Assembly: GCA_040954595.2 (NCBI GenBank)
Contig: JBECUI020000024.1
Location: 310,001-374,000, forward strand
Direction: 5' to 3'
Source: Balanoglossus misakiensis
Lineage: Eukaryota > Animalia > Hemichordata
Length of the DNA: 64,000 bases
A program made the position numbers and the translations under genes. The notes under the pieces were generated by a model. That model was given only the letters and a program-made list of their open reading frames with translations, was not told the DNA's origin and did not search any database. This document shows, piece after piece, positions 4,108 through 61,527 of this stretch; position 1 is the first letter of the stretch, and the number at the start of each line of letters is the position of its first letter.

Positions 4108-4156
4108 CGCGCTTCGTGTTCGGTCACTTATTTCGGCGATCTTGGTTCCCATCAAC

Positions 4157-4891: not shown

Positions 4892-4987
4892 CCATTACAA
4901 GGACGACATGACACCCAGGCTGAAAAGTTAAGTATTGGCCAAAATATCAATGTTCCCTGCAATATTTCGGGCTGTAATTGCTCTTTA

Positions 4988-7072: not shown

Positions 7073-7183
7073 GCTGGCTGGCCGTTATGGCGGACTCTAG
7101 TATTAGACAAATGTTCTAATCATTGTAGTCCAAGCACGTTATGTGCACATGGAACACTAGCATTAGCTATGTAATGACATTTA

Positions 7184-8233: not shown

Positions 8234-8266
8234 AGCCGTTTCTTCTCTAATTCCCCTTCTGTTTTT

Positions 8267-8373
8267 GGTCTATGGAGGGTAATAAATGTGGACGGCTAGC
8301 AACGTGACCACACACTGTACATATTGTTGTGTCGTGTTTTACTGTGGATAGTGCTAGTGAGTGTAAACAAAAC
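8267..8373 (+). repeat. Split direct repeat B1 (107 bp; B2 copy at 8747-8853)
   Basis: GGTCTATGGAGGG...GTGTAAACAAAAC occurs twice with one visible mismatch (GTGTCGTG vs GTGCCGTG). Confidence 0.92.
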
Positions 8374-8977
8374 GTGTACTTTCTTGAGGCACGTAGTAGA
8401 TACAAGAAAGTAATGTTTTGTTGCCATAGAGGGCGCTATCACTAGCGGAACGTCAGTCTACACGTTGCTGGCAAGGTGACTACACGGCTAATTTTTTCTT
8501 TAGAGTTGTATTATTCTATTGTTCTTAGTGGAGAGTCAGTGTGTCTGAACATCTAACGCTTTTCCAGAGTTTTTGGCCTATTAAATAGATAGGTTTTCTC
8601 TCTGGTTTTTAGTGCGAGATGTATTCAGCACTTGTTTTCGCATTGTACTTTTGTAAAGGTTTTTACTAGCAATTACATGGTACTCTGGCTTTTTCTCTTT
8701 CACGAGTAGTAATTAACTTTCTTGTATTAAACTCAAGACTTATGTAGGTCTATGGAGGGTAATAAATGTGGACGGCTAGCAACGTGACCACACACTGTAC
8801 ATATTGTTGTGCCGTGTTTTACTGTGGATAGTGCTAGTGAGTGTAAACAAAACTACCATTTTCGACTTTTTTTCGAAAAATTGTCTTTTTTACAAAATAA
8901 ATAAGAATAAATTCTTTTCTTAGTTTCAAACGGGTAGAGATACTTTCCACACGGGTTTTCTAACATTGAATTCCCGT

Positions 8978-9680
8978 TCATCAACTCAGATTTCCTACAG
9001 CATAAGTCGGCTAAAACCCTGACACTCTAGAGCAGAAACAGTTGCACACTGGTAACGTTGAACAAGTCGATTTTTCTACTGCCTGGCTCGGCTAAATCTC
9101 CGTCACAATATGACAGACACTAGCGTACGTTAGCAACGGTGATCAAGTCAGATTTTCTACGGCATGGCTTGGATAAAGCCCCGGCACTCCAGAGCAGAAA
9201 CACGCGTACAGAGACCACGTTGATCAAGTCTGATCTCCTAAGGCTTGGCTCGACTAAAACCCAGGCACACTATGACAGACACTAGCGTTCGTTAGCAACG
9301 TTGATCAAGTCAGATTTCCTACGGCATGGCTTGGCTAAAGCCCTGGCACTCTAGAGCAGAAACACGCGTACAGAGACCACGTTGATCTACTCACATTTCC
9401 TTCGGCCTGGCACGGCTGATGCCCCGGCACTATATATAGGACACAGACTGGCGTAAGTTAACAACGGTAATCACGTCGGGTTTCCTACGGCCTGGCTCAG
9501 CTGAAGCCCCGGCACTCTAGAGCAGAAACATGCGTACATTGACCACGTTGATCAAGTCAGATTTCCTACGGCGTGACTCGGCTAAAACCCCGGCACACCA
9601 TGACAGACACTAGCGTTCGTTAGCAACGGTGATCAAGTCGGATTTCCTTCGGCCTGGCTCTGCAAAAGACCCGACACTCC
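8978..9680 (+). repeat. ~80-bp subrepeat block in unit 2 (about 9 copies)
   Basis: Same core as 1830-2930, with fewer copies. Confidence 0.82.
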
Positions 9681-10867
9681 GGTACAAAGACGTTGGCTAA
9701 GTCGGGCAAACCGAAGAGGGAAAGTCACAGCGGGTCAACACTCGACATTTGTTCGGGTAGGACTGCATTATTGCCTGTCAATTTATAGAGAGAGCCCGAA
9801 TTTAACCAGGGCGTTTCAGACACCGACGTTAGTTGGGGCACGGCCTGCAGTACTGCCGGGTAAGCTGACATCGGCGTACCGCATATAATGTAGGGGGGGG
9901 GGACAGAACGGTTCAATACTACATTTATTAGATATCAGCTAATTTTGGACAATCATCTAAAATCTAAATAATTTTTTCATATTTGGATATCTGATGATGT
10001 ATGAAATTTCCATTATATGTAAACATGGTGCTGATTATAAAAAATGCACTCTGAATGAGCTGATTTAATACAAAATTGCGTTTTATTCGTTTTTGCACCA
10101 AAAAGGTCATTTTTAGGCAAAACATTCTTTATTTTATTAATTCGGTGACCTGATCATATATAAACAATTGCTTGTATGTTAAAAGTTTTTATGGCTTTTA
10201 AAAGCAGTGACACTGGCGGCATTCAACACGAAAATAACAATTTTAGCCACAATTTGGACAAAATGGTAAATTTTTGAAAATTACAAAAATACCTGTTTTC
10301 TACATTCTCGGAAATCTGATGGAGTATAGAATGCTCTTCGTATGTATATATCGATACAAATTCCACAAAAGACCGTCTAATTTGGCTCACTGCAGACAAA
10401 ATTGCGTTTTACCAAATTTTCCTTGAAAATGTCATTTTTAGAAAAAAAAATAAAAAAAACCTTTGTTCTTCGAATTTGGTGCCCTGATCATATATGACAT
10501 GTTGATTGTATGTTAAAACTTTCGACCACTCCAAAAATGCAAAGATATTGACGGAATTCAAGTAAAAATAGCCATTTTGGCCATATTTTGACAAAAATGC
10601 TAAATTTTTGAAAAATCCTAAAAAATTAACTCTTTTCTTCATTTTCGGAAATGTTATGGAGCATGAAGTGTCGTTCTCTTGTAAAAAGTGCTGCAAATTC
10701 CAGAAAAGGCGGTATAATTTGAATCACCCAAGAAAAAATTACCATTTTCGACTTTTTTTCTCTCGAAAAATTGTCTTTTTTACAAAATAAATAAGAATAA
10801 ATTCTTTTCTTAGTTTCAAACGGGTAGAGATACTTTCCACACGGGTTTTCTAACATTGAATTCCCGT

Positions 10868-11975
10868 TCATCAACTCAGATTTCCTACAGCATAAGTCGG
10901 CTAAAACACTGACACTCTAGAGCAGAAACAGTTGCACACTGTTAACGTTGAACAAGTCGATTTTTCTACTGCCTGGCTCGGCTAAATCTCCGTCACAATA
11001 TGACAGACACTAGCGTACGTTAGCAACGGTGATCAAGTCAGATTTTCTACGGCATGGCTTGGATAAAGCCCCGGCACTCTAGAGCAGAAACACGCGTACA
11101 GAGAGCACGTTGATCAAGTCTGATCTCCTACGGCTTGGCTCGACTAAAACCCCGGCACACTATGACAGACACTAGCGTTAGTAAGCAACGTTGATCAAGT
11201 CATATTTCCTACGGCATGGCTTGGCTAAAGCCCTGGCACTATAGACCAGAAACACGCGTACAGAGACCACGATGATCTACTCACATTTCCTTCGGCCTGG
11301 CACGGCTGATGCCCCGGCACTACATATAGGACACAGACTGGCGTAAGTTAACAACGGTAATCACGTCGGGTTTCCTACGGCCTGGCTCAGCTGAAGCCCC
11401 GGCACTCTAGAGCAGAAACAGGCGTACATTGACCACGTTGATCAAGTCAGATTTCCTACGGCGTGACTCGGCTGGTGCACCGGCTCTATATGACACAGAC
11501 TGGCGTAAGTTATCAACGGTGATTACGTCGGATTTCCTACGGCCTGGTTTAGCTGAAGCCCCTGCACTCTAGAGCAGAAACAGGCGTACATTGACCACGT
11601 TGATCAAGTCAGATTTCCTACGGCGTGACTCGGCTGGTGCACCGGCTCTATATGACACAGACTGGCGGAAGTTATCAACGGTGATTACGTCGGATTTCCT
11701 ACGGCCTGGTTTAGCTGAAGCCCCGGCACTTTAGAGCGGAAACACGCGTACATTGACCACGATGATCAAGTCAGATCTCCTACGGCCTGGCTCGACTAAA
11801 ACCCCGGCACACCATGACAGACACTAGCGTTCGTTAGCAACGTTGATCAAGTCGGAATTCCTTAGGCCTGGCTCTGCAAAAGACCCGACACTCTAGAGCA
11901 GAAACACGCGTACAGAGACCACGTTGATCTACTCGGATTTCCTTCGGCCTGGCTCTGCAAAAGACCCGACACTCT
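10868..11975 (+). repeat. ~80-bp subrepeat block in unit 3 (about 14 copies)
   Basis: Same core, with a different order of linker variants from unit 1. Confidence 0.82.
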
Positions 11976-12838
11976 AGTACAAAGACGTTGGCTAAGTCGG
12001 GCAAACCGAAGAGGGAAAGTCACAGCGGGTCAACACTCGACATTTGTTCGGGTAGGACTGCATTATTGCCTGTCAATTTATAGAGAGAGCCCGAATTTAA
12101 CCAGGGCGTTTCAAACACCGACGTTAGTTGGGGGCACGGCCTGCAGTACTGCCGGGTAAGCTGACATCGGCGTACCGCATATAATGTAGGGGGGGGGGAC
12201 GGAACGGTTCAATACTACATTTATTAGATATCAGCTAATTTTGGACAATCATCTAAAATCTAAATCATTTTTTCATATTTGGATATCTGATGATGTATGA
12301 AATTTCCATTATATGTAAAAAATGGTGCTGATTATAAAAAATGCACTCTGAATGAGCTGATTTAATACAAAATTGCGTTTTATTCGTTTTTGCACCAAAA
12401 AGGTCATTTTTAGGGAAAACATTCTTTATTTTTTTAATTCGGTGACCTGATCATATATAAACAATTGCTTGTATGTTAAAAGTTTTGATGACTTTTAAAA
12501 GCAGTGACACTGGCGGCATTCAACACGAAAATAACAATTTTAGCCACAATTTGGTCAAAATGGTAAATTTTTGAAAATTACAAAAAATACCTGTTTTCTA
12601 CATTTTCGGAAATCTGATGGAGTATAGAATGCTCTTCGTATGTATATATCGATACAAATTCCACAAAATACAGTCTAATTTGGCTCACTGCAGACGAAAT
12701 TGCGTTTTACCAAATTTTCCTTGAAAATGTCATTTTTAGAAAAAAAATAAAAAAACCTTTGTTCTTCGAATTTGGTGCCCTGATCATATATGACATGTTG
12801 ATTGTATGTTAAAACTTTCGACCACTCCAAAAATGCAG

Positions 12839-12878
12839 CACTGCGGCCCAGAAGTGTGTTCATTTGTCCGCTATTCCG
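12839..12878 (+). repeat. Left terminal inverted repeat (imperfect, bipartite)
   Basis: CACTGCGGCCCAGAAGTGTGTTCATTTGTCCGCTATTCCG. Confidence 0.8.
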
Positions 12879-12943
12879 CGAAGCGGAAATATGTTAATTG
12901 AGGTCATATGCTGGGGTCACGTTCCTAGCATCGTATATACAAA

Positions 12944-13564
12944 ATGGCGGCGTCCATGATCGATGTTTCTAAAACAGTGAAACGTAAGCTGCGTGAGGCC
13001 AAATTTCAGTTATTGAGGACAAATATCGACCGTTCCATCAACCTACATGATTGTTTTGATGATCTCGATGCTGCTGTTGATGTAACAGTTCGCAAACGTA
13101 GTGCAACGATGGTGGAGCTTGCGAAGATGCAGCAGATTCCGGTGTATCCTGTATTCGAACGGGAGATGTGTCACTGGCGCTCAACAATTATGCAGAGAAT
13201 GAAGCCATCACCCTCAGTGCGCAACCCATGGAAGTGCAGTTTTGGTAGGAATGTTCCTATGGAAGTTTTCGATGTATTTCGAAAGTGCGCTACCCGTAAT
13301 TCAATGGGAATTTATGATCGGGAAACTCCATGTATTGCTACCTTTCGATTTACCTGGATCAACAAAGTGAATTACGTGCTGGGTAGAGGTGTCAACTATG
13401 AAAACCAACAACTTCTGGTGAAGACAGTAAAGGGTAAGCGGGTGGAAGTTATCTGCACCGAAGATAAACCTATGATTGTCAGATACAGGAAATCAGCCGA
13501 GACAGTGACAATACATTTCCATTTTGGATGCTGGAACAAACATGGTGTTGCTCAGCATTTGTGA
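12944..13564 (+). CDS. Orphan 206-aa protein, second gene of the RAG1/Transib-like transposon
   Basis: Intact ATG-to-TGA ORF in a good initiation context (AAAATGGCG), 105 bp from the left end, with ATTAAA at 13672. No family recognised; not kelch/PHD (RAG2)-like. Confidence 0.7.
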   Translation: MAASMIDVSKTVKRKLREAKFQLLRTNIDRSINLHDCFDDLDAAVDVTVRKRSATMVELAKMQQIPVYPVFEREMCHWRSTIMQRMKPSPSVRNPWKCSFGRNVPMEVFDVFRKCATRNSMGIYDRETPCIATFRFTWINKVNYVLGRGVNYENQQLLVKTVKGKRVEVICTEDKPMIVRYRKSAETVTIHFHFGCWNKHGVAQHL

Positions 13565-13984
13565 AATCATATTTAGACTGTTGTTGAAATTTTTTTTCAT
13601 GTTCTTGGAACTGACTATATTACTTTTTGTCAGTCCATTTGAATTCATGCATCGTTGCATGTCCAAGCAAAATTAAAAAAGAAAAACATGTTTTATAGGA
13701 ACTGAATAGCTGTGGGTGAATCATTTATCATTCAGTTTTTATTCACTTATTTTGAAACATGGTTATCTACAGAGCTGATATAAGCAGCTAGTTTCAAAGG
13801 ATGATTAAAAAGCTATATACATATTTTGAACAATACAATACAAGCAGCACAAAATCTGTGACATTCATAATGAAAGATTATTTACAACAAACTCTCTTAC
13901 AGTTATATACAAATCTAAAACTATCTGGTACATTTCATGTACAGTAATAATTGTTTTGAATCATGAAATTCAAACTTTCACATT

Positions 13985-16184
13985 TTATTTCATTATTTTT
14001 TTTAGTTTTTTTGAGATCTTACCACTAATTGCAGACTGTTTTATTTCTGACATAAATTCACTGCTGCATATTTCACAGGAATTTGACAACTCTTCCTTTA
14101 CATTCCCACAATAACAGTATGATGGGTCATCAAAGCATTTGTCTGGGATGTACTTTATTACTTTGGAGGCATTTGACCTCCCATCCCCCCTGTAGTTATC
14201 TGAAGCGGGGTCTCGCATGCGTAACCAGTACAACAATACATACTCATGTCTGAAAATTAGTGGCCATCTATTTTGAGGGGTGGAATTATTGCTGTATTCC
14301 AGAAGGCGCTGATATTTTGCCTCCCTGCCCTCCATTGTATTAAGCCCAAGCCCCATTTGGAACTGCTGGTGGATTTGAGATGCATGACACGGAACAACAT
14401 ATCCTATATGCCAAATAGTATTGTTTACGGTCAGAAATAACGCATGCAAATTGAAGTACCATTTGCACTTCTGCCTTAGTACTACAATATCTCTCTCATG
14501 TAGGGTAAACCTGGAACAGAGAGATGTTATATCTCTGAGTAGGACACCAATGTAACCATACAGGGACAATTTCGCTCTCACCTGTGCACTGATACCGGGT
14601 TCCCTAAAACACTCTATCAGTGACATAAAAGACCATGCCAACTTCCTTGATTCTTCCCCTGTAAAGCGGTGAACTCTCACTGATTGGGCATGGGTACTAA
14701 CCTTATTCTCAGCAAAATATTTGACAATTTGATTGTATAGTTTCGCTGCTCTCACTGTATATTTTAGTGTATGCAGGAATTTGTACAGGCATGAATTTGG
14801 TGGTAGCTTTTCTAATTTCACACCATGGTCAATGACTTTTTGGTCAGTCTTAGCCACAGCATCAGTAAGAAGCCTTTGAAAGAAATACTGCCAGGCATTG
14901 TTTTTTAGATGTAGGGGTTCTATCTTGGCACACTGTATATACTTACCCAGGGGTGGAATATATTCCTGTCGGGATTTTCTGGAGGCAATGAAACGTGTGA
15001 CCTTAGAGCGATCTGTCAATGTTTCAGGCTTACCTGTTTTCTTTGTCAAATTTGCTTTGAATTTTGCCACTGCTTATAGCTCCACTCTGACCAAAATTTC
15101 CCTGGCCCTATATCTGCCCCTATTTCATCTATGCTACCTTTTGTTACATTAGCAAAGGAACTGAAATACTCAGCAGCATTAGATAACTCACCAGAAACTG
15201 AGGCTAATCCCTTTTGATCAAATGGCAGCAAAGATACATTAAACTTTACACTCAGGCCATGTAAAGTGTATTGTTTGGCCTCTATGATCTCAAACTCTTT
15301 GGCTAGGTTTTTAGCATAATCTATCAGGACTGGGTCATCTTCCTTCAGATTAGCCCCTAGCAACAAGAAATTATCATCAGGGCTTGCTAATCTGTGGCCC
15401 ACATTGATGAAACTGACAAGCCAGGAAGTTGCCTGACCATATTTTCCAAAAGGAGCCCCATCAGCACCAACAGCAAGTTGGAAAGTGCCCTTCGGTTTGC
15501 CAAACCAATTTAGGATGTTAGGGTAGTGCTCACTCAAGCAAAGATACATGTCAGCAACTTTAAAGAGCATCTGCTCTGTATTTCGCTTCATACCTACTAC
15601 TTTGTTTGCATCTGTTACAATTGGTTCAAGACTTCCTATATCTAAACCACGTGTATATTCAGTGACCTTGTTGTAGGAAAGTAACCTTGGTATGTTACAC
15701 CTAAAGTGAAATTGCAACACTTTTCTAGGTTGTTTTAATTTAGACAGATTCAACTCACTATTACGTAAGGCATTGTATTTGCGTTTTGACAAAACCCCAT
15801 TCTGATACAACACTTGCACACTCCTAGTCAAATTACCTTCACTTTTCTCAAATTCAGATATTGATTTCTTTATCAAAGTTGGTATGACCAATTCATTTAT
15901 TTTCATTGATGATTGAAGGTACTTTTCCATTTGACGTGGAGTGGCACTGTTGATCAAAGTATACCATAGCCCATCAAGAGCTGATTTTGGTGGATTTGCA
16001 CTGACATGTCTCCCTGCAGATTTATCTGTTCCTGATGATGACTGGTGTATGACTGTAGCTGCATGAAGAGTCTGACTTCTGCGTTCATGTTGCTGACTTC
16101 TGGACAGTGTGAGGCATTCACTGTTATTAGCACAAACCTGGCTGCTTTTATGAACCCACTTCTGTTTCTTTGGGGATGTCAAAT
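13985..16184 (-). pseudogene. RAG1/Transib-like DDE transposase main exon, split by a frameshift near 15070
   Basis: ORFs 15046-16182 and 13985-15070 together give motifs in RAG1 core order: LSKRKYNALR (cf. LSCSQYHKMYR), GADGAP (first D, cf. SCDGMG), FDQK (second D, cf. YDEK), EPLHLK (cf. DALHCD), TIWHIGYVVPCH (cf. YFHKTLAHVP) and GLNTMEGREAK (E, cf. GAWASEGNESGNK). Splice acceptor TTGCAG precedes 16184; AATAAA on the minus strand at 13738-13743. Confidence 0.78.
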
Positions 16185-16223
16185 CTGCAATATTTAATAA
16201 ATGAATACAAAACAGATTTTCAT

Positions 16224-16795
16224 TGTCATGCCAAGGTCAAACAGGTAGGCAATGTCACATGAGCAAGCAATACACATGAATGGAAACCCCAGTGTCATGC
16301 CAAGGTCAAACATGGAGGCCATGTCACATGAGCAAGCAATACACATGAATGGAAACCCCAGTGTCATGCCAAGGTCAAACAGAGAGAGAATATCACATGA
16401 TCAAGCAATACACATGAATGGAAATCCCAGTGTCATGCCAAGGTCAAACATGGAGGCCATGTCACATGAGCAAGCAATACACATAAATGGAAACCCCAGT
16501 GTCATGCCAAGGTCAAACATGGAGGCCATGTCACATGAGCAAGCAATACACATAAATGGAAACCCACGTGTCATGCCAAGGTCAAACATGGAGGCCATGT
16601 CACATGAGCAAGCAATACACATGAATGGAAACCCCAGTGTCATGCCAAGGTCAAACAGAGAGAGAATATCACATGATCAAGCAATACACATGAATGGAAA
16701 TCCCAGTGTCATGCCAAGGTCAAACAGAGAGGCAATGTCACATGAGCAAGCAATATGCATAAATGGAAACCCCAGTGTTATGCCAAGGTCAAGCA
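16224..16795. repeat. 69-bp minisatellite (about 8 copies) in the putative transposase intron
   Basis: TGTCATGCCAAGGTCAAAC...AAACCCCAG has period 69 (e.g. 16252 and 16321). Confidence 0.92.
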
Positions 16796-17019
16796 GGGAG
16801 GTGTTTCAAAGCTGTAGTTCAGAATTTAGAAAACAAACACACATAAAATCATATCATATACATTAAACCAAGGTCAAAATGTTTTATGATTCACTTAGTT
16901 GTAATATAATTTAAAGTATACAAACTTTAATTTGGTGGATATTTTCCTATTCTGCTTGTAATCATAAATCTTGTGAAAATCTGAAATGAAGCTAAATTCC
17001 TTCTATATAATTACCTTAC

Positions 17020-17370
17020 CTCCTGATTAAGCTTAACCCTATTTCCAGCTAATCTCCTTTGCTTCTTTGCTAGCCTGTTTAGTTGCTTACTGGCCCTGTC
17101 GACTAGTCTCCTCTTTGCATCTAATTTCTGCATTTTCTCTCTGTACTGAGCTACCTCTTCCTCACGTCTACGCTTTCTCTCTCTTGCCCATGCCCCTAGC
17201 TTGTATCTATTCTCTGACTTGCTCTTAACCTTTTCTGGCAGTGTCTTTGCAGCTAACTCAGCATCTAACAGCTGTTGAAGTTGTATGTCTCTAGCTATTT
17301 CTCTGGCTTTTTTTTGTTGGACTGCATACTGCCCGATGTCAAAATGGTTTGTCCTTTTCCTGTTAGGCAT
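17020..17370 (-). CDS. Probable upstream exon of the transposase gene (basic, coiled-coil-like N-terminus)
   Basis: 117 K/R/E-rich codons ending at CAGGAG|GTAAGG. An acceptor (TTTAG) precedes 17425, and a donor GTAAGT lies near the right TIR (~23401-23406). Direct splicing to 16184 is not in phase, so the joining is unresolved. Confidence 0.5.
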
Positions 17371-18134
17371 GATTTGAGTTATATCCAGAGCACAGCTGGG
17401 ATGGAGTTACACAATGGAGCATTTCCTAAATGTGAATAAATGTGAAAAGTTGTAGAAAACATAAAAGGTCATCTAGAAAGCTGTTTCAGTCAAACAGTTC
17501 CAAACAGACAGTATTTAATGACGCTACAGAAGACCTGATGATATAAAAGACTGTGTATTTTGCGAAGTACTGGCATACTGTTGCAAGTACCGGAACATTG
17601 ATTGAGTATAATCAGCTGCAATCTACGTATATTGCGCGTGGACGCAGTTCCTTCTGTGTGCGTCTGCTTTGCCTAAACGCTGTACGCGCGCGGCGTTCAA
17701 AGCGCTGTCGCAAGAACTCTCTCGTTCAAAATATTTACTCTTACATTTTAGAACGAAAATGATATATCAACATGTTATATAGATATCAAGGAACAATCTG
17801 CTCGTTTTGGTTTTTTAGGTTCACGCTTCAAACTCGAGAAATCTGCCGATATGTTTTGCCTGACGGTCGACATTTGCGTAGCTGTGCCATTGTAATCAAT
17901 GGTAGAGCGACGCGCAGGCAGAACGCGCCAAACTCGATGAATTTCTGCTTGGATCAATTTCTACATATGACCTTTTTGGGGATAGAAAATCAAAACACTG
18001 AGTTACAAACGTCTTAGGAACACTCTCATGGTTTTGAAATTTTGAATAATGCATAAAGATTTGATTTTTTCTGCCGTTTTTCTGTCTTGGTTGTGGTTGC
18101 TATGTTCTTTGTTTACATAGTTACCAATGATAGC

Positions 18135-18322
18135 TGTAATATCCAGACATATAACAAAATATACTTTCAGTATGGCCAGCTGCATTCTGTACATGCCAGG
18201 CGCGGTACGTTACCTGCCCATGCGCAGTAGTTGTGTTGTTGTTAATAAAGTTAACATGGCGAGATGTTAGAAGCCATACAACGGTGAATCAGTCTATTTG
18301 ATTCATAGTCGGGGACATTACA
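18135..18322 (+). repeat. 5' LTR
   Basis: TG...CA termini and AATAAA inside; matches 23074-23261. Confidence 0.95.
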
Positions 18323-18323
18323 A

Positions 18324-18336
18324 TGGCGACGAGGAT
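18324..18336 (+). other. Primer binding site, complementary to the 3' end of tRNA-Ser(GCU)
   Basis: TGGCGACGAGGAT lies one base after the 5' LTR. Confidence 0.75.
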
Positions 18337-18513
18337 CAAACGATCCACAGAACGCAAAGCAGAACAACCATAAATGCATGGTGAGTGACTCAAACCATTT
18401 CCCAGCGAGAGCCGACCCAGAAATTACACATCCGTAACCGCCAGATCTGCCGAACGTGAGTGTGACGTACATATAGTGTCGATCAGTGCTACGTGACTGA
18501 TAGAACTGACAAA

Positions 18514-21500
18514 ATGGCGGCACCCCCAGCAGCAATAACCGTGGTTACAGACACGAGAAACCTCAAATGCCAACCTTTTGTGCACACCGATGATCAGATC
18601 ACAACAGGCAAAGCTTGGGAGGAATGGTTGGAGGGCATCGAACGAGAATTTCGATATTTCAGAATAACAGAACCTACCGATAAGAAAGACGCCATGATAA
18701 TCTATGGAGGAAAAGAGATAGCGAGACTCGAGAAAAGTTTACCTGACCCCACAGAAGGAGCAAACGTCTATGAGAAGTTGAAAACGAAACTAAACGAGTA
18801 CTACACGCCAAAGAAGAATAAACACCACGCAAGGTATTTATTTCTCAAAATGACTCCGACAACAAATGAAAGCACTGTCGCATACGCAGCCAGATTGAGA
18901 GAAAAAGCCAACGAGTGTGAATTCGGCACGAGTTGTGAAGAGAGAATTCTGGAACATATCATCCAGACAATTGACAATTGCACCCTGATACAGAAAGCAA
19001 TAAACAAGAAATGGTCTCTTACTCAGTTACTGACTGAAGCAGCGCAAATGGAGGACACCTCACTACAAATGCGTGATATGAAACAGTCAGGTGAGAGAAG
19101 TGTCGCAAAAGTGAGACAATACAGACAAACCAAGAAACACGGAAAACCCGAGAAAAGAAAACAGACACCTGCACATGATGGTAAACAGTGTACATATTGT
19201 GGACTGACTGGAGTTCATAAAGAAGGACCGAACTGCCCTGCTTTTGGTAAACAATGCAGGAAATGCCAAAAGAGAAACCACTTCGCTTCTGTGTGTAGAG
19301 CAGATCCAGACAGAGGAAGTAAAGACACAGGGTATAGAAGCAGAAAGACACCTAGCAGTGCCCAAGAGAAAAGTGACTATAGAAAACAGCAGAGAAGAAT
19401 AAAGAAAACTTCAACAAAAGAGCAAGACAGCACTACAAGTTCAGATGACGACTATTTTGAACATGCAATCAAACACGTCAAAGGTATCAAAAGAGCACAT
19501 GAAACTTACACAGGAAAAACTGTCACAGTCAGAATAAATGATGTTGATGCACAGATGGAACCTGACACCGGAGCTGAGGTAAATGTCATGGATGAACATC
19601 AGTTCAAAGCATTACAACACAGATCCAGCGATGAGATCAAACTACGGGACAGTCACACAAAGCTAAACACTTTGCAAGATCGATTACCAGTGAAAGGCGA
19701 ATTCTCTACCATAGTGAGAAACAAAACCTGTGGAGTGAAAGCCAAGTTCATCGTAGTCAGAGGTAGGATAAATTCACCACCACTGCTGAGCAGAAATACA
19801 CTAACTGAACTGGGTATGATGCAAATAAAACCAGATGGATCGCTGACAGAGGTCAACAATCTACGAATAAAAGAAAATCAAGACATCAAAACAGTGAAGA
19901 GTGAAATACTGGACAAACAAGTGAAAGAGATAACAGAGAAATACGGAAATGTATTCCAGGGAATTGGAAGAATAAGAGATATGAAGAATGATAGAGAAAT
20001 TTATGCCAAGTTCAGCATGAAGCAAGAAGCAGTACCAGTAGCCCAGAAACCCAGACCTGTGGCATACTACCTGCAGAAACCACTAAAGAAATGGCTGGAG
20101 CACTGTATACAAGAAGAAATCTTTGAAGAAGTTCCACAAGGAGAACCAGTGACATGGTGTTCACCCCTTGTAGTACAACCAAAACCAAGATTCCATGAGA
20201 CCCCAAGGGAAAACCTAGAGCCACACATGATCAGAGCAAGTGTAGACTTGAGAGTACCAAACCAGTACATGGAGAGAAACAGAATCACCCAGAGCCCAAT
20301 AGTGGAAGATTTTGAGCACAAGTTCAACGACTGTGTGATATTCTCCAAGCTTGATATGAGGCAGGGATATCACCAACTCTTGCTAGATCCAGAATCTCGA
20401 GCAGTAGCAACTTTCAGCACACCATGGGGCAACATGAGGCCGAAACGACTGATCTTTGGAGCCAAGTCATCACAAGATTTGTTTGACGAGACAATATACA
20501 GAATATTTGGTGACATACTAAGATGTCTCAACCAGCGCGATGACATCCTCTTGGGAGGCCGTTCAGCAGAAGAACACAACAAAACACTAGAAACAGTCCT
20601 ACAGAGAGCACAGGATTTCGGGATCACATTCAACCTTGACAAATGCAAATTTGGAGTTGAGGAGATTGAATTCTACGGATACCGGTTCACGAAAGATGGA
20701 CTCAAGCCAACACCAGAGAAAGTCCGAGCTGTGAAAGAATGCAAAGCACCAAAATCCAAGGAGGCAGTGAGAAGCTTCCTGGGAATGATCGGATATCTCT
20801 CGAAGTTCATACCACGGTACACATCACTGACAGCACCCCTGAGAGAGCTTACTCACAAAGATGTCCATTTCAGATGGGGACAGAAGGAAAACGCAGCTTT
20901 CCAGAACCTCAAAGACAGTATCACAAATGAAGATACTATGGCTTACTTCAACCCATCGAAACCCATCACAGTAAGAGTAGAAGCTAGTTACCATGAAGGA
21001 CTGTCAGCAGGACTTTTCCAGCAGAGTGAGAAAGGCCTGAGACCAGTTCACTTCATCAGTCGCACTTTGACAAGCGCTGAGAGAAGATACAGCCAGACTG
21101 AGAAAGATGCTTTAGCAGTGAAATGGGCGAAGAACAGAGTCCGCATATATCTGTTGGGAGCACCCAGATTCAGAATCATCACAGCACATAAACCGCTCAT
21201 CCCAATGTTCAACAAAGCTACCATGAAACTACCACCCAGGATAGAGAAATGGGTAATGGAAATGCAAGATGTCGATTATGAGCTACTCTATGAGCCAGGC
21301 AAAGATGCTGCTGACCCACTGGATTTCTTGTCCAGACACCCACTACCTGAAACAGGAAGAGATGGTACAGAGAAAACAATCAAGAAAGTGATAGAAACAG
21401 AATATGCTGTTGTGCTAGACCGTATCAAAGAAGAAACGAAGAAAGACAGTCAACTACAGAAACTGAGCAGAGTCATACGAAGAGGCAACTGGGAGAAGCA

Positions 21501-22701
21501 CAAGAAAGACCCAGACATCAACCCGTTTTACACAGTAAGACAAGAGCTGAGCATGGTAGACGACCTGATACTCAGAATCAACCGCATCGTGATTCCACGC
21601 AGTCTGCAGAGAAAAGTCATCAAATCAGCACACAAGCTAGGTCATTTGGGCATGACGAAGACCAAGCAGATGTTGCGAGAGAAATATTGGTTTCCGATGA
21701 TGAACAGCTACGTCGAGCAGATGATAGGTCAATGCTTCGAATGTCAAGTAACGACGAAGCAACACAAACAAGAACCTGTCAAGATGACACCAATACCAGA
21801 GAAACCATGGGAAGTAATATCAGTGGACTTTGGAGGACCATATCCTGATGGACACTACAACCTGGTAGCCATCGACAAGAGAACAAGATACCCAGAAGTT
21901 GAAACTGTATATTCAACAGCAGCGAAACCCACAAAGAGAAAACTCAAGAAAATGTTCGCTACACATGGCACACCCAGACAGTTGGAGAGTGACAATGGCC
22001 CACCCTTTGATTCAGAAGAATTCACCAACTTCGCAAAGGAAGAGGGATTTCACCACCATAACGTAACACCAGAACATGCGAGAGCCAATGGAGAAGCTGA
22101 AAACTTCATGAAGATGCTGAATAAAACAGAGAGAATCGCACACTTGGAAGGCAAGGACAGAGAAATAGCCATTCAAGATATGCTGACAGGATACCGTTCA
22201 TCACCACACCCAGCTACAAATACAGCACCGTATGAAGCAATGATGAACAGACAAGTCAGAACCAAACTAGACCACCACACAAGAGTTGACCAGAAAACAG
22301 TGAAAGATGATGCAATCAATGAGAGAGACAGAGAATACAAAGAGAAGATCAGACAAGCAACAGAAAAGAGAAATGTGAAGCCACACAATTTCATCGTGGG
22401 AGACTATGTTCTACTGAAACAACAGAAAAGAAACAAATGGTCAACCGCATATGAACCAACATTCTACAGAGTATACAGAATTGATGGTTCAAGCATTGCA
22501 GCGAGACGTATAACAGATGGAAGGGAAGTATATCGTGATGCGAGCAAGTTCAAACTTGTGAACGCAGTAGTACAAGATCTTGAGGAGGAAATGTTCATAT
22601 ATGATGCAACCGGAAAACGAAATGCAAGGGACTGGCGAGAAAATCTACTCCTTAATACCTTAATGGACATATCCTGGAAGACTATGAATAGCAGGCGATA
22701 G
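18514..22701 (+). CDS. Gypsy Gag-Pol polyprotein (gag, protease, RT, RNase H, integrase)
   Basis: Two zinc knuckles (CTYC..H..C; CRKCQKRNHFASVC), protease PDTGA, RT LDMRQGYHQ/QRDD, RNase H RYSQTEKDAL, and integrase HHCC plus VDF/SDNG/EAENF, in PR-RT-RH-IN order. Confidence 0.95.
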   Translation: MAAPPAAITVVTDTRNLKCQPFVHTDDQITTGKAWEEWLEGIEREFRYFRITEPTDKKDAMIIYGGKEIARLEKSLPDPTEGANVYEKLKTKLNEYYTPKKNKHHARYLFLKMTPTTNESTVAYAARLREKANECEFGTSCEERILEHIIQTIDNCTLIQKAINKKWSLTQLLTEAAQMEDTSLQMRDMKQSGERSVAKVRQYRQTKKHGKPEKRKQTPAHDGKQCTYCGLTGVHKEGPNCPAFGKQCRKCQKRNHFASVCRADPDRGSKDTGYRSRKTPSSAQEKSDYRKQQRRIKKTSTKEQDSTTSSDDDYFEHAIKHVKGIKRAHETYTGKTVTVRINDVDAQMEPDTGAEVNVMDEHQFKALQHRSSDEIKLRDSHTKLNTLQDRLPVKGEFSTIVRNKTCGVKAKFIVVRGRINSPPLLSRNTLTELGMMQIKPDGSLTEVNNLRIKENQDIKTVKSEILDKQVKEITEKYGNVFQGIGRIRDMKNDREIYAKFSMKQEAVPVAQKPRPVAYYLQKPLKKWLEHCIQEEIFEEVPQGEPVTWCSPLVVQPKPRFHETPRENLEPHMIRASVDLRVPNQYMERNRITQSPIVEDFEHKFNDCVIFSKLDMRQGYHQLLLDPESRAVATFSTPWGNMRPKRLIFGAKSSQDLFDETIYRIFGDILRCLNQRDDILLGGRSAEEHNKTLETVLQRAQDFGITFNLDKCKFGVEEIEFYGYRFTKDGLKPTPEKVRAVKECKAPKSKEAVRSFLGMIGYLSKFIPRYTSLTAPLRELTHKDVHFRWGQKENAAFQNLKDSITNEDTMAYFNPSKPITVRVEASYHEGLSAGLFQQSEKGLRPVHFISRTLTSAERRYSQTEKDALAVKWAKNRVRIYLLGAPRFRIITAHKPLIPMFNKATMKLPPRIEKWVMEMQDVDYELLYEPGKDAADPLDFLSRHPLPETGRDGTEKTIKKVIETEYAVVLDRIKEETKKDSQLQKLSRVIRRGNWEKHKKDPDINPFYTVRQELSMVDDLILRINRIVIPRSLQRKVIKSAHKLGHLGMTKTKQMLREKYWFPMMNSYVEQMIGQCFECQVTTKQHKQEPVKMTPIPEKPWEVISVDFGGPYPDGHYNLVAIDKRTRYPEVETVYSTAAKPTKRKLKKMFATHGTPRQLESDNGPPFDSEEFTNFAKEEGFHHHNVTPEHARANGEAENFMKMLNKTERIAHLEGKDREIAIQDMLTGYRSSPHPATNTAPYEAMMNRQVRTKLDHHTRVDQKTVKDDAINERDREYKEKIRQATEKRNVKPHNFIVGDYVLLKQQKRNKWSTAYEPTFYRVYRIDGSSIAARRITDGREVYRDASKFKLVNAVVQDLEEEMFIYDATGKRNARDWRENLLLNTLMDISWKTMNSRR

Positions 22702-23073
22702 CTAGGCTATGGAAAACTGACAATGACAAAACAATGTTCGAGTTTATTGTTCCATATTTTATTCTATTTCGAATTCGTATTGAAAGTGAAAATTGCATGA
22801 AAAAAGACAGGAACATTTATACCGATGGACATATCTTTATTCAATTTGATATTTTGAAATTGAAATTAATGTTATTTGTTGAGCAGCTATCAAGGCCAAT
22901 TTATATTTAGAAATTTGGAAACACAAGGATTGTTGAAAACATACATTATATTCATGATCAAACCGCAAACAGGAATACTGACCGTGAACCACAAGAAAAA
23001 TGAGACTCAGTACGAAATGACAATCTTCAAGAGAAATTGAAACAACTCTGCAATCTCAAAAGAAAAGGAGAAA

Positions 23074-23261
23074 TGTAATATCCAGACATATAACAAAATA
23101 TACTTTCAGTATGGCCAGCTGCATTCTGTACATGCCATGCGCGGTACGTTACCTGCCCATGCGCAGTAGTTGTGTTGTTGTTAATAAAGTTAACATGGCG
23201 AGATGTTAGAAGCCATACAACGGTGAATCAGTCTATTTGATTCATAGTCGGGGACATTACA
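23074..23261 (+). repeat. 3' LTR
   Basis: Copy of 18135-18322, followed by the TSD ATAGC. Confidence 0.95.
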
Positions 23262-23496
23262 ATAGCGATTTGAAACCAGGTCAGATTTTCAGTGAAATTA
23301 AATGAATAGAAATCAGAGAATGATGACAATACTAGCTTAAGACCTTAAAGAATATGATAACGTGATGTAAACATTATAAATGCGTTTAATGTCTTGTAAT
23401 ACTTACCGGCATTTTCATGTTGTTGTAACTGGCGAACGTTCCATTGCCGGTAACAAATCGCCTCATACATTATTCATGAGGCCATGAAAGTAGGGA

Positions 23497-23537
23497 CGGA
23501 AATATCGGACAAAGATGGCGCACACTGGGCTGTAGTG
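23497..23537 (-). repeat. Right terminal inverted repeat of the RAG1/Transib-like transposon
   Basis: Reverse complement reads CACTACAGCCCAGTGTGCGCCATCTTTGTCCGATATTTCCG. Confidence 0.8.
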
Positions 23538-26500
23538 CAGAGCTAGTGGTCAGTGTCGTGCCAATCAATTTTGAGTGTTTGGTGGGGTCAACATATGCGT
23601 CAACATTGATTAGTCAGGCCATGCAGAGCTAGTGGCCAGTGTCGTGCCCATCAATTTTGAGTGTTTGGTGGGGTCAACATTTGCGTCAACATTGATTAGC
23701 CAGGCCATGCAGAGCTAGTGGCCAGTGTCGTGCCCATCAATTTTGAGTGTTTGGTGGGGTCAACCTTTGCGTCAACCTTGATTAGCCAGGCCATGCAGAG
23801 CTAGTGGCCAGTGTCGTGCCCATCAATTTTGAGTGTTTGGTGGGGTCAACCTTTGCGTCAACATTGATTAGCCAGGCCAGGCAGAGCTAGTGGCCAGTGT
23901 TGTGCCCATTAATTTTGAGTGTTTGGTGGGGTCAACCTTTGCGTCAACATTGATTAGCCAGCCCAGAGCTAGTGGCCAGTGTCGTGCCCATTAATTTTGA
24001 GTGTTTGGTGGGGTCAACCTTTGCGTCAACATTGATTAGCCAGCCCAGAGCTAGTGGCCAGTGTCGTGCCCATTAATTTTGAGTGTTTGGTGGGGTCAAC
24101 CTTTGCGTCAACATTGATTAGCCAGCCCAGAGCTAGTGGCCAGTGTCGTGCCCATCAATTTTGAGTGTTTGGTGGGGTCAACCCTTGCGTCAACATTGAT
24201 TAGCCAGGCCAGAGCTAGTGGCCAGTGTCGTGCCCATCAATTTTGAGTGTTTGGTGGGGTCAACCCTTGCGTCAACATTGATTAGCCAGGCCAGAGCTAG
24301 TGGCTAGTGTCGTGCCCATCAATTTTGAGTGTTTGGTGGGGTCAACCTTTGCGTCAACATTGATTAACCAGGCCATGCAGAGCTAGTGGCCAGTGTCGTG
24401 CCCATTAATTTTGAGTGTTTGGTGGGGTCAACCTTTGCGTCAACATTGATTAACCAGGCCATGCAGAGCTAGTGGCCAGTGTCGTGCCCATTAATTTTGA
24501 GTGTTTGGTGGGGTCAACCTTTGCGTCAACATTGATTAACCAGGCCATGCAGAGCTAGTGGCCAGTGTCGTGCCCATTAATTTTGAGTGTTTGGTGGCGT
24601 CGACCTTTGCGTCAACATTGATTAACCAGGCCATGCAGAGCTAGTGGCCAGTGTCGTGCCCATTAATTTTGAGTGTTTGGTGGCGTCAACCTCTGCGTCA
24701 ACATCGATTAACCAGGCCATGCAGAGCTAGTGGCCAGTGTCGTGCCCATCAATTTTGAGTGTTTGGTGGGGTCAACCTTTGCGTCAACATTGATTAACCA
24801 GGCCATGCAGAGCTAGTGGCCAGTGTCGTGCCCATCAATTTTGAGTGTTTGGTGGGGTCAACCTTTGCGTCAACATTGATTAACCAGGCCATGCAGAGCT
24901 AGTGGCCAGTGTCGTGCCCATCAATTTTGAGTGTTTGGTGGGGTCAACATTTGCGTCAACATTGATTAGCCAGGCCATGCAGAGCTAGTGGCCAGTGTCG
25001 TGCCCATCAATTTTGAGTGTTTGGTGGGGTCAACATTTGCGTCAACATTGATTAGCCAGGCCATGCAGAGCTAGTGGCCAGTGTCGTGCCCATTAATTTT
25101 GAGTGTTTGGTGGGGTCAACCTTTGCGTCAACATTGATTAGCCAGGCCAGAGCTAGTGGCCAGTGTCGTGCCCATCAATTTTGAGTGTTTGGTGGGGTCA
25201 ACCCTTGCGTCAACATTGATTAGCCAGGCCAGAGCTAGTGGCCAGTGTCGTGCTCATCAATTTTGAGTGTTTGGTGGGGTCAACATTTGCGTCAACATTG
25301 ATTAGCCAGGCCAGAGCTAGTGGCCAGTGTCGTGCCCATCAATTTTGACTGTTTGGTAGGGTCAACCCTTGCGTCAACATTGATTAGCCAGGCCAGAGCT
25401 AGTGGCCAGTGTCGTGCCCATCAATTTTGAGTGTTTGGTGGGGTCAACCTTTGCGTCAACATTGATTAGCCAGGCCAGAGGTTAGTGGCCAGTGTCGTTC
25501 CCATCAATTTTGAGTGTTTGGTGGGGTCAACCCTTGCGTCAACCTTGATTAGCCAGCCAGAGCTAGTGGCCAGTGTCGTGCCCATCAATTATGAGTGTTT
25601 GGTGGTGTCAACCCTTGCGTCAACATTGATTAGCCAGGCCAGAGCTTAGTGGCCAGTGTCGCGCGTATTAATTTTGAGTGTTTGCTGGGGTCAACCCTTG
25701 CGTCAACCTTGATTAGCCAGGCCAGAGCTAGTGGCCAGTGTCGTGCCCATCAATTTTGAGTGTTTGGTGGGGTCAACCCTTGCGTCAACATTGATTAGCC
25801 AGGCCAGAGCTAGTGGCCAGTGTCGTGCCCATCAATTTTGAGTGTTTGGTGGGGTCAACCCTTGCGTCAACATTGATTAGCCAGGCCAGAGCTAGTGGCC
25901 AGTGTCGCGCCCATTAAATTTGAGTGTTTGGTGGGGTCAACCCTTGCGTCAACCTTGATTAGCCAGGCCAGATCTAGTGGCCAGTGTCGCGCCCATTAAT
26001 TTTGAGTGTTTGGTGGGGTCAACCCTTGCGTCAACCTTGATTAGCCAAGCCAGAGCTAGTGGCCAGTGTCGCGCCCATCAATTTTGAGTGTTTGGTGGGG
26101 TCAACCCTTGCGTCAACATTGATTAGCCATGCCAGAGCTTAGTGGCCAGTGTCGCGCCCATTAATTTTGAGTGTTTGGTGGAGTCAACCTTTGCGTCAAC
26201 CTTGATTAGCCAGGCCATGCAGAGCTAGTGGCCAGTGTCGTGCCCATCAATTTTGAGTGTTTGGTGGGGTCAACCTTTGCGTCAACCTTGATTAGCCAGG
26301 CCAGAGCTAGTGGCCAGTGTCGTGCCCATCAATTTTGAGTGTTTGGTGGGGTCAACCTTTGCGTCAACATTGATTAGCCAGCCCAGAGCTAGTGGCCAGT
26401 GTCGTGCCCATCAATTTTGACTGTTTGGTGGGGTCAATCTTTGCGTCAACCTTGATTAGCCAGGCCATGCAGAGCTAGTGGCCAGTGTCGTGCCCATCAA

Positions 26501-29500
26501 TTTTGAGTGTTTGGTGGGGTCAATCTTTGCGTCAACCTTGATTAGCCAGGCCATGCAGAGCTAGTGGCCAGTGTCGTGCCCATCAATTTTGAGTGTTTTT
26601 GTGGGGTCAACCTTTGCGTCAACCTTGATTAGCCAGGCCATGCAGAGCTAGTGGCCAGTGTCATGCCCATCAATTTTGAGTGTTTGGTGGGGTCAACCTT
26701 TGCGTCAACCTTGATTAGCCAGGCCAGAGCTAGTGGCCAGTGTCGTGCCCATCAATTTTGAGTGTTTGGTGGGGTCAACCTTTGCGTCAACCTTGATTAG
26801 CCAGGCCTTGATTAGCCAGGCCATGCAGAGCTAGTGGCCAGTGTCGTGCCCATCAATTTTGAGTGTTTGGTGGAGTCAACCTTTGCGTCAACCTTGATTA
26901 GCCAGGCCATGCAGAGCTAGTGGCCAGTGTCGTGCCCATCAATTTTGAGTGTTTTTGTTGGGTCAACCTTTGCGTCAACCTTGATTAGCCAGGCCATGCA
27001 GAGCTAGTGGCCAGTGTCGTGCCCATCAATTTTGAGTGTTTGGTGGGGTCAACCTTTGCGTCAACCTTGATTAGCCAGGCCATGCAGAGCTAGTGGCCAG
27101 TGTCGTGCCCATCAATTTTGAGTGGTTGGTGGGGTCAACCTTTGCGTCAACCTTGATTAGCCAGGCCATGCAGAGCTAGTGGCCAGTGTCGTGCCCATTA
27201 ATTTTGAGTGTTTGGTGGGGTCAACCTTTGCGTCAACATTGATTAGCCAGCCCAGAGCTAGTGGCCAGTGTCGTGCCCATTAATTTTGAGTGTTTGGTGG
27301 GGTCAACCTTTGCGTCAACATTGATTAGCCAGCCCAGAGCTAGTGGCCAGTGTCGTGCCCATTAATTTTGAGTGTTTGTGGGGTCAACCTTTGCGTCAAC
27401 ATTGATTAGCCAGGCCAGGCAGAGCTAGTGGCCAGTGTCGTGCCCATTAATTTTGAGTGTTTGGTGGGGTCAACCTTTGCGTCAACATTGATTAGCCAGC
27501 CCAGAGCTAGTGGCCAGTGTCGTGCCCATTAATTTTGAGTGTTTGGTGGGGTCAACCTTTGCGTCAACCTTGATTAGCCAGGCCAGAGCTAGTGGCCAGT
27601 GTCGTGCCCATCAATTTTGAGTGTTTGGTGGGGTCAACCTTTGCGTCAACCTTGATTAGCCAGGCCTTGATTAGCCAGGCCATGCAGAGCTAGTGGCCAG
27701 TGTCGTGCCCATCAATTTTGAGTGTTTGGTGAGGTCAACCTTTGCGTCAACATTGATTAACCAGGCCATGCAGAGCTAGTGGCCAGTGTCGTGCCCATCA
27801 ATTTTGAGTGTTTGGTGGGGTCAACCTTTGCGTCAACATTGATTAACCAGGCCATGCAGAGCTAGTGGCCAGTGTCGTGCCCATCAATTTTGAGTGTTTG
27901 GTGGGGTCATTCTTTGCGTCAACATTGATTAACCAGGCCATGCAGAGCTAGTGGCCAGTGTCGTGCCCATCAATTTTGAGTGTTTGGTGGGGTCAACCTT
28001 TGCGTCAACCTTGATTAGCCAGGCCATGCAGAGCTAGTGGCCAGTGTCGTGCCCATCAATTTTGAGTGTTTGGTGGGGTCAACTTTGCGTCAACCCTGAT
28101 TAACCAGGCCATGCAGAGCTAGTGGCCAGTGTCGTGCCCATCAATTTTGAGTGTTTGGTGAGGTCAACCTTTGCGTCAACATTGATTAACCAGGCCATGC
28201 AGAGCTAGTGGCCAGTGTCGTGCCCATCAATTTTGAGTGTTTGGTGGGGTCAACCTTTGCGTCAACATTGATTAACCAGGCCATGCAGAGCTAGTGGCCA
28301 GTGTCGTGCCCATCAATTTTGAGTGTTTGGTGGGGTCAACCTTTGCGTCAACATTGATTAACCAGGCCATGCAGAGGTAGTGGCCAGTGTCGTGCCCATC
28401 AATTTTGAGTGTTTGGTGGGGTCAACCTTTGCGTCAACATTGATTAACCAGGCCATGCAGAGCTAGTGGCCAGTGTCGTGCCCATCAATGTTGAGTGTTT
28501 GGTGGGGTCAACCTTTGCGTCAACATTGATTAACCAGGCCATGCAGAGCTAGTGGCCAGTGTCGTGCCCATCAATTTTGAGTGTTTGGTGGGGTCAACCT
28601 TTGCGTCAACATTGATTAACCAGGCCATGCAGAGCTAGTGGCCAGTGTCGTGCCCATCAATTTTGAGTGTTTGGTGGGGTCAACCTTTGCGTCAACATTG
28701 ATTAACCAGGCCATGCAGAGCTAGTGGCCAGTGTCGTGCCCATCAATTTTGAGTGTTTGGTGGGGTCAACCTTTGCGTCAACATTGATTAACCAGGCCAT
28801 GCAGAGCTAGTGGCCAGTGTCGTGCCCATCAATTTTGAGTGTTTGGTGGGGTCAACCTTTGCGTCAACATTGATTAACCAGGCCATGCAGAGCTAGTGGC
28901 CAGTGTCGTGCCCATCAATTTTGAGTGTTTGGTGGGGTCAACCTTTGCGTCAACATTGATTAACCAGGCCATGCAGAGCTAGTGGCCAGTGTCGTGCCCA
29001 TCAATTTTGAGTGTTTGGTGGGGTCAACCTTTGCGTCAACATTGATTAACCAGGCCATGCAGAGCTAGTGGCCAGTGTCGTGCCCATCAATTTTGAGTGT
29101 TTGGTGGGGTCAACCTTTGCGTCAACATTGATTAACCAGGCCATGCAAAGCTAGTGGCCAGTGTCGTGCCCATCAATTTTGAGTGTTTGGTGGGGTCAAC
29201 CTTTGCGTCAACATTGATTAACCAGGCCATGCAGAGCTAGCGGCCAGTGTCGTGCCCATCAATTTTGAGTGTTTGGTGGGGTCAACCTTTGCGTCAACAT
29301 TGATTAACCAGGCCATGCAGAGCTAGCGGCCAGTGTCGTGCCCATCAATTTTGAGTGTTTGGTGGGGTCAACCTTTGCGTCAACATTGATTAACCAGGCC
29401 ATGCAGAGCTAGCGGCCAGTGTCGTGCCCATTAATTTTGAGTGTTTGGTGGGGTCAACCTTTGCGTCAACATTGATTAACCTGGCCATGCAGAGCTAGTG

Positions 29501-30013
29501 GCCAGTGTCGTGCCCATTAATTTTGAGTGTTTGGTGGGGTCAACCTTTGCGTCAACATTGATTAACCAGGCCATGCAGAGCTAGCGGCCAGTGTCGTGCC
29601 CATCAATTTTGAGTGTTTGGTGGGGTCAACCTTTGCGTCAACATTGATTAACCAGGCCATGCAGAGCTAGCGGCCAGTGTCGTGCCCATCAATTTTGAGT
29701 GTTTGGTGGGGTCAACCTTTGCGTCAACATTGATTAACCAGGCCATGCAGAGCTAGCGGCCAGTGTCGTGCCCATTAATTTTGAGTGTTTGGTGGGGTCA
29801 ACCTTTGCGTCAACATTGATTAACCAGGCCATGCAGAGCTAGTGGCCAGTGTCGTGCCCATTAATTTTGAGTGTTTGGTGGGGTCAACCTTTGCGTCAAC
29901 ATTGATTAACCAGGCCATGCAGAGCTAGTGGCCAGTGTCGTGCCCATTAATTTTGAGTGTTTGGTGGGGTCAACCTTTGCGTCAACATTGATTAACCAGG
30001 CCATGCAGAGCTA
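23538..30013. repeat. Satellite array, 86-bp unit (81-82-bp variants), roughly 75 copies
   Basis: GCCATGCAGAGCTAGTGGCCAGTGTCGTGCCCATCAATTTTGAGTGTTTGGTGGGGTCAACCTTTGCGTCAACATTGATTAACCAG repeated head-to-tail; period 86 between 28981 and 29067. Confidence 0.97.
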
Positions 30014-61510: not shown

Positions 61511-61527
61511 AGTATTTTATGTCTCAC

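Follow-up and report, generated by a model that had tools for sequence, protein, structure and literature searches.

A hemichordate transposon represents an apparently undescribed two-gene family with a predicted RAG1/Transib-type transposase fold and a small convergent partner gene

What kind of transposon sets a RAG1-like transposase tail to tail with a second gene that is not RAG2? The question is raised by a stretch of 64,000 nucleotides from the hemichordate Balanoglossus misakiensis (contig JBECUI020000024.1, positions 310,001 to 374,000; hereafter the window, numbered from its first letter). In it, an element spanning 12839-23537 has imperfect terminal inverted repeats (TIRs) starting with CAC at both termini, and contains a 206-aa partner open reading frame (ORF) on the plus strand facing transposase ORFs on the minus strand. 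A first-pass annotation had read this as ProtoRAG architecture with an unrelated partner, possibly an undescribed RAG-related lineage. We find that the element is real and that its traits run through a whole family, which is apparently undescribed and is best read as a CMCT-clade relative with no greater affinity to RAG than to Transib. In our view this is probably a two-gene cut-and-paste family of marine invertebrates, in which the transposase, predicted to adopt a RAG1/Transib fold, likely receives help from a small non-catalytic protein whose gene faces it tail to tail. What stands out is the conserved convergent partner, for which no fold match was found, and a zinc motif that has been lost.

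The two genes occur together well beyond the window. Metagenome loci were fetched via the transposase, and the best 80 of 216 were analyzed; a tblastn search with the window partner gave matches on the opposite strand downstream of the transposase in these loci. A partner profile was then seeded from 15 loci, with a threshold of E < 1e-5 and with the window partner excluded from the seed, and the window partner matched it at E 6.5e-41. The partner was found in 34 of the 80 loci overall and in 30 of the 35 whose 3ʹ flank measures 1.5 kb or more, always downstream and on the opposite strand, and most partner-less loci among the 80 were short contigs. Counted by clusters at 85% identity (at least 1.4 kb of flank), the partner was present in 17 of 22. 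The convergent layout that the first pass had described at a single locus is thus a feature of the family.

Trees of 17 representative pairs of transposase and partner had 8 of 14 splits in common (shuffled mean 0.23, maximum 4 in 2000), the distances within the two proteins were correlated (Mantel r 0.78, p 1e-4), and slower tree methods agreed in well-supported branches. This shows that the two genes have been inherited jointly over a long time. Ratios of nonsynonymous to synonymous substitution rates were taken from six unsaturated pairs of one clade, the remaining pairs being saturated or near identical, and came to 0.26-0.47 for the partner and 0.11-0.27 for the transposase. The transposases concerned are only 31-61% identical to one another, and retention of the partner under purifying selection over such distances speaks for a role that benefits the element.

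The transposase itself has many unannotated relatives. The C-terminal transposase ORF matched 28 longer homologues, and a transposase profile search returned 273 proteins at E ≤ 10 among 7990 candidates, 120 of which are listed. Named hosts are Ptychodera, Nematostella, Actinostola, Acropora, Porites, and Lineus, making this an unannotated transposon group that is widespread in cnidarians, a hemichordate, and a nemertean. The closest named homologue of the window transposase is P0001 from Ptychodera, at 62% identity over 657 columns, and near-identical 797-aa copies sit at several loci of the well-annotated Nematostella genome. These Nematostella copies and loci L003, L074, L079, and L081 are apparently intact members. 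No precomputed Pfam domain was present among the 120 homologues listed, a search of the 28 members at E 0.05 gave no relevant Pfam family, nor did one of the window ORFs, and nothing relevant matched when the window ORFs and family profiles were compared against PDB, Pfam, PHROGs, and NCBIfam. No relatives were found in viral contigs. The single match among prokaryote genomes was L081, where a complete member (4394-12935) lies between tandem satellites without ORFs in a contig of a bacterial genome bin; this contig is likely animal DNA inside a bacterial bin, and near 4979-5320 it carries a duplicated 5ʹ fragment of the partner.

Relatives also define the ends of the family. In 16 representatives, the end next to the partner has the sequence CACGCYGGG and lies 70-153 nt ahead of the partner start. 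This motif, which was derived from the same loci, occurs within 200 nt in 26 of 32 loci, compared with 0.15 per kb in the background. The partner-side end of the window element agrees with the family end CACGCCGGGCCAG at 10 of 13 positions. Of the eight loci in which both ends are unambiguous and flanks are available, four have exact 3-bp target-site duplications (TSDs), reading GAT, AGC, TAG, and ATT (p about 4e-6). The long contig L081 adds an ATA duplication with 14 of 14 end bases matching, bringing the total to five of nine two-ended loci, among which no 4- or 5-bp duplications were seen. This count omits L068, which has no flank, and L046, L049, and L050, which have two nested left ends and would give 3, 1, and 2 bp, respectively; the omitted L046 pair reads TTA. 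In the L045-L050 subfamily, two left-end motifs are nested, the outer ~850 bp upstream of the inner; flanks vary at the outer motif and are fixed at the inner one.

At the window locus, the partner-side TIR spans 12839-12878 (plus strand, CACTGCGGCCCAG...TTTGTCCG) and the transposase-side TIR spans 23497-23537 (minus strand, CACTACAGCCCAG...TTTGTCCG). CACTGCGGCCCAG at 12839 and CACTACAGCCCAG, read as the reverse complement inward from 23537, are identical at 11 of 13 positions, and the local alignment runs for ~41 nt with a score of 35, which none of 4974 random window pieces reached. Together with the convergent ORFs, this bears out the CAC-starting repeats around two tail-to-tail genes described at first pass. 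The left boundary was fixed independently, since copies of the flanking repeat without the insertion diverge from the window exactly after 12838. CAG adjoins the element on both sides as a putative 3-bp duplication: the left copy (12836-12838, plus strand) forms the last letters of a very high-copy interspersed host repeat (about 12182-12838), and the right copy (23538-23540, plus strand) opens an 82/86-bp satellite (23536-30013). The satellite does not continue the left-flank repeat, but because both the repeat and the satellite unit contain ATGCAGAG, the CAG duplication is weak on its own, and the match could stem from rearrangement. The 3-bp duplication of the first-pass annotation therefore stands in five of nine relatives and remains weak at the locus where it was proposed. 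Contigs for this locus came from two runs (X1 and X2) of one sample, and one X2 contig joins the left-flank repeat to the satellite almost directly.

We next consider the fold of the transposase, which was modelled for homologue P0001 (~62% identical to the window protein; predicted local distance difference test score [pLDDT] 86, predicted template modelling score 0.84). Foldseek gave RAG1 as the best match (E 6e-12), and structural alignment with RAG1 yielded Z 22.5 at a root-mean-square deviation (rmsd) of 3.7 over 463 aligned residues. The model scored Z 19.9 (rmsd 4.1, 462 aligned) against amphioxus BbRAG1L (PDB 6b40) and Z 19.4 (rmsd 4.1, 424 aligned) against the hairpin-forming state of HzTransib (PDB 6pqx), compared with Z 14-15 for open states of HzTransib, 12.5 for the P element, and 7.8 for ISCth4. 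Identity at structural matches was 8-13% throughout, and about 10% for RAG1, BbRAG1L, and HzTransib, to all three of which the family is therefore only distantly related; no match was found among viral structures, and no CACTA/EnSpm transposase structure was among the structural matches listed. The predicted fold is thus of the RAG1/Transib kind, as had been suggested. Since BbRAG1L and HzTransib, the latter in its matching state, obtain similar scores, RAG1L is not favored over Transib, and with the low identity and the 3-bp duplication, the special closeness to RAG and ProtoRAG in the earlier reading was not upheld.

This bears on whether the family could be a true ProtoRAG offshoot in which RAG2L was swapped for a new gene. 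ProtoRAG and other RAG-like (RAGL) transposons have the same layout, a convergent gene pair between CAC-starting TIRs, and are found in marine invertebrates (PMC7204232). Their D-D-E residues and LH motif come in the same order, RAG1 takes the top structural scores, and with some chains, alignment of the N-terminal helices to RAG1 starts at about residue 404. Such an offshoot is nevertheless very unlikely. Identity to BbRAG1L is ~11%, and no RAG1 sequence match was found in PDB or Pfam even by profile, whereas RAG1-like proteins are ~30% identical to RAG1 (PMC4411706, PMC1131882). HzTransib scores as well as RAG1L, none of 18 long N-termini of the family has a Chapa domain, the family lacks the ZnC2 cysteines and keeps the first ZnH2 histidine in only 23 of 48 members, and its TSD is 3 bp, not the 5 bp of RAGL transposons (PMC7204232). 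The family TIR, CACGCYGGG, is also unlike the protostome consensus of CACTWMCAAA type, and in place of the six-bladed kelch propeller that forms the RAG2 core, there is a small alpha/beta partner (PMC7204232). Transib, for its part, shares the predicted fold, CAC ends, and a transposase of ~700-800 aa. It is, however, single-gene (PMC4411706) with a 5-bp TSD and a C(2)C motif (PMC1131882), in contrast to the two genes, 3-bp TSD, and missing C(2)C of this family; a new Transib lineage in Drosophila likewise has elements with one ORF (10.64898/2026.08.26.747230).

The zinc motif deserves closer description. Across 48 aligned members, the catalytic residues D1, D2, and E never vary, the LH histidine is conserved in 47, and the H..H pair retains its second histidine in 46 and its first in 23. 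In RAG1, the cysteines of C(2)C stand 19 and 22 residues past the second D; at D2+19 and D2+22, this family has Ser and Ala/Gly. None of 144 proteins has CxxC within 35 residues of D2. Over the whole stretch from D2 to E, 135 of 138 lack it, and the remaining three have it at scattered places. At the C-terminus, 126 of 144 proteins carry CxC..CxxC. In the window copy, the order is D (ADGAP), D (PFDQK), LH, and E (EGREAK), but the first histidine of the H..H pair is replaced by tyrosine (GYVVPCH), so that of the motifs initially listed in RAG1 order, the two Ds, LH, and E stand and the H..H pair does not.

Two further groups come close to the family in their ends. Chapaev3 elements have CAC..GTG ends, a 3-bp TSD, an LH motif, and animal hosts (PMC4079192, PMC4411706). 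Their TWA target consensus (PMC4079192) is fitted by none of the five clean family TSDs, and their N-terminal Chapa zinc finger (PMC4411706) is missing, with its CxxC found in none of 18 long family N-termini, several of them near-identical Nematostella copies. The family also lacks C(2)C and has a partner, whereas the available portions of PMC4079192 and PMC4411706 mention no second gene for Chapaev3. For EnSpm/CACTA and the CMCT clade, the likenesses are CA..TG ends, a TSD within 2-5 bp, and a DDE core (PMC12730594), and CAC ends with a 3-bp TSD have been treated as EnSpm-like within the wider CMCT clade (Kojima 2025, PMC12730594). That work reports C(2)C between the second D and E for RAG1, Transib, Chapaev, and EnSpm, and H(3-4)H also for CMCT; here, C(2)C is missing and the first histidine of H(3-4)H is variable. 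Unlike EnSpm/CACTA, the transposase has no Pfam profile match and the partner has no known domain. We call the family a relative of the CMCT clade, and not EnSpm, because C(2)C and any profile match are missing despite fitting ends and TSD.

These same features raise the prospect that the family has already been catalogued in Repbase or Dfam as EnSpm, Chapaev, or Transib, for example from Nematostella or coral, with the second ORF noted or not. Near-identical copies recur in the well-annotated Nematostella genome, CAC..GTG ends and a 3-bp TSD are consistent with EnSpm (PMC12730594), and Repbase EnSpm has absorbed both Chapaev and Mirage (PMC4455052). We hold this to be rather unlikely, as Pfam is silent on the 28 members and the 120 homologues listed, source names of the homologues are all "uncharacterized" or "hypothetical," and the C(2)C reported for all named CMCT lineages is missing. 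Moreover, no description of such a two-gene group was found in the open literature, a scope outside which Repbase Reports and subscription journals lie, and the family motifs were not found in the available portions of the supplements of PMC12730594 and PMC4411706. Within Pfam, PDB, NCBIfam, PHROGs, and the open literature, with Repbase outside that scope, the transposase accordingly falls outside described families, as the first-pass annotation had supposed.

The partner gene (12944-13564, plus strand) is intronless and intact, and its 206-aa basic product has a helical N-terminal half and an alpha/beta C-terminal half. A word-indexed search with the partner alone gave no match, and an exhaustive search returned 118 proteins at E ≤ 0.001, mostly of 140-260 aa. 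At least three of these, the long repetitive proteins P0048, P0101, and P0138, look like chance matches and were left out. In P0108 (613 aa), residues 466-608 form a partner domain behind a part resembling a microtubule-associated repeat protein, which is either a chimeric gene model or a host capture. No recurring Pfam or PHROG family was found in the partner proteins. Conserved motifs are W..I.RR...PW and G.WN..G.PQH, with W78, R84/R85, P95-W96, F109, and G195-W197-N198-G201-Q204-H205 as conserved residues, and no conserved acidic triad or catalytic residues were seen in the family alignment. The family is basic (median isoelectric point 9.4; 52 of 67 at 9 or above). The partner model (pLDDT 94) has four long helices followed by a mixed sheet with two helices. 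Foldseek found no match at E ≤ 0.001 and none above background; the best structural scores were Z 7.3, confined to the first two helices, and about 5 for the C-terminal part. The absence of a fold match does not show that the fold is new. With no propeller and no fold match, the partner is unrelated to RAG2, as first stated. Nor is the partner a fragment split off from the transposase: the profile probability was 0.2%, and no protein was matched by both profiles.

By analogy with RAG and Transib, a transposase dimer would bind the short CAC ends, nick, and excise the element. Excision would probably proceed via a hairpin on the flank, a route that is plausible because the LH histidine is kept, and the excised ends would be joined to target DNA with a 3-bp stagger. 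Within this transpososome, the anatomy of the partner suggests that it would bind the transposase and/or end or target DNA and would not act as an enzyme, because it is basic, has no conserved acidic triad, and conserves an arginine helix and the C-terminal G.WN..G.PQH. Plant En/Spm encodes a second, non-catalytic protein, TnpA, and the partner might similarly be a regulator or protector, binding subterminal DNA, controlling transposase expression, or counteracting silencing. Its basic character, conserved arginine helix, and lack of catalytic residues would suit such a role, and partner-less copies with an intact-looking end exist. We consider it less probable, since the partner matches no known DNA-binding or chromatin fold, conservation within it is strongest in a short aromatic motif at the C-terminus, and long subterminal repeat arrays were not seen in the window. 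We therefore favor a transpososome subunit over a pure regulator, one that perhaps takes the place, at the insertion domain, of the zinc clamp that was lost. A bolder version, possible though doubtful, is that a RAG1-fold lineage lost the zinc clamp of RAG1, Transib, and CACTA and independently recruited an obligate subunit of new fold, encoded tail to tail as RAG2 is, in a second, convergent origin of a RAG1-RAG2-style pair.

Several points weigh against the reading of a two-gene family with a helper protein. Tree agreement is expected from linkage alone and is no proof of function or binding. Five of the 35 well-flanked loci lack a full partner, of which L034 and L043 retain a C-terminal remnant, and L014 (3164) and L030 (1498) carry an end-like motif 129 bp past the transposase stop, so that partner-less copies do exist. 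Four of the nine two-ended loci have no duplication of 2 bp or more. The predicted fold is that of P0001 and not of the window protein, the family is set apart from Chapaev, EnSpm, and Transib by descriptions and not by a tree, and prior cataloguing in Repbase is possible. On some of these points there is more to say: partner-less loci nest among partner-bearing ones in the tree, and the duplication-less loci are probably chimeric short-read assemblies, with L070 and L074 sharing a left flank and differing in the right one. L014 and L030 leave no room for a partner and may be a single-gene derivative.

The window copy of the transposase is a frameshifted, broken copy. Its ORFs lie on the minus strand at 15046-16236 and 13985-15073, overlapping at 15046-15073; the frame is broken near 15074, where the gene is ~22 nt shorter than P0001 and X1 contigs branch exactly at 15073. 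The 3ʹ part (13985-15073, 59% identical to P0001) holds the LH motif, a helical insertion domain, the catalytic E, and the C-terminal CxC..CxxC, and the middle part (15074-16184) holds NBD/DDBD-like helices, both Ds, and YFSSFAN in place of C(2)C. An X1 contig is continuous from 12809 to 15073, with no branch at the element end, and breaks exactly at the frameshift, from which we infer one insertion site and a second allele differing near the frameshift. A putative first coding exon of 117 codons (17370-17020, minus strand), coiled-coil like and with two F.IG motifs, resembles the N-termini of full-length homologues (P0014, P0024, and P0158), its joint to an acceptor being tentative. A candidate short first exon with a GTAAGT donor (23400-23496, minus strand) beside the transposase-side end is proposed from sequence only. 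The transposase intron contains a 69-bp minisatellite of 8.4 copies (16224-16801). The interval separating the two stop codons holds a pair of poly(A)-type hexamers in opposite orientations (13672-13743), ATTAAA at 13672 on the plus strand and AATAAA at 13743-13738 on the minus strand; the hexamers noted at first pass thus exist, but 72% of shuffles of this stretch hold one on both strands, and we discarded them as evidence.

Half of the element interval is occupied by a nested Gypsy long terminal repeat (LTR) retrotransposon (18135-23261, plus strand; LTRs 97% alike, a 1411-aa ORF, and an ATAGC duplication), which does not belong to the transposon family, looks intact, and lies antisense within the putative 5ʹ intron of the transposase. 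Both X1 and X2 contain a contig joint that omits it, which shows that some molecules of this sample lack the Gypsy insertion. Elsewhere in the window, DIRS-type retrotransposon ORFs (4058-8233) encode a zinc knuckle, reverse transcriptase/RNase H, a Dam-like methyltransferase stretch, and a tyrosine recombinase, and three 81/162-bp repeat arrays with higher-order structure (1830-2927, 8975-9679, and 10865-11977) flank this element. Long ORFs at 53285-53905, 60529-61767, and 62098-62637 had no Pfam match.

The step from a single-gene, Transib-like enzyme to dependence on RAG2 is an open one in the origin of V(D)J recombination. The family described here offers a natural parallel, in which predicted fold and gene layout are the same but the partner is unrelated, the zinc motif is lost, and the stagger differs, and its intact-looking members permit an assay with and without the partner. 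If the partner should prove merely a regulator, there would still be a widespread unannotated transposon group and a protein family without a fold match.

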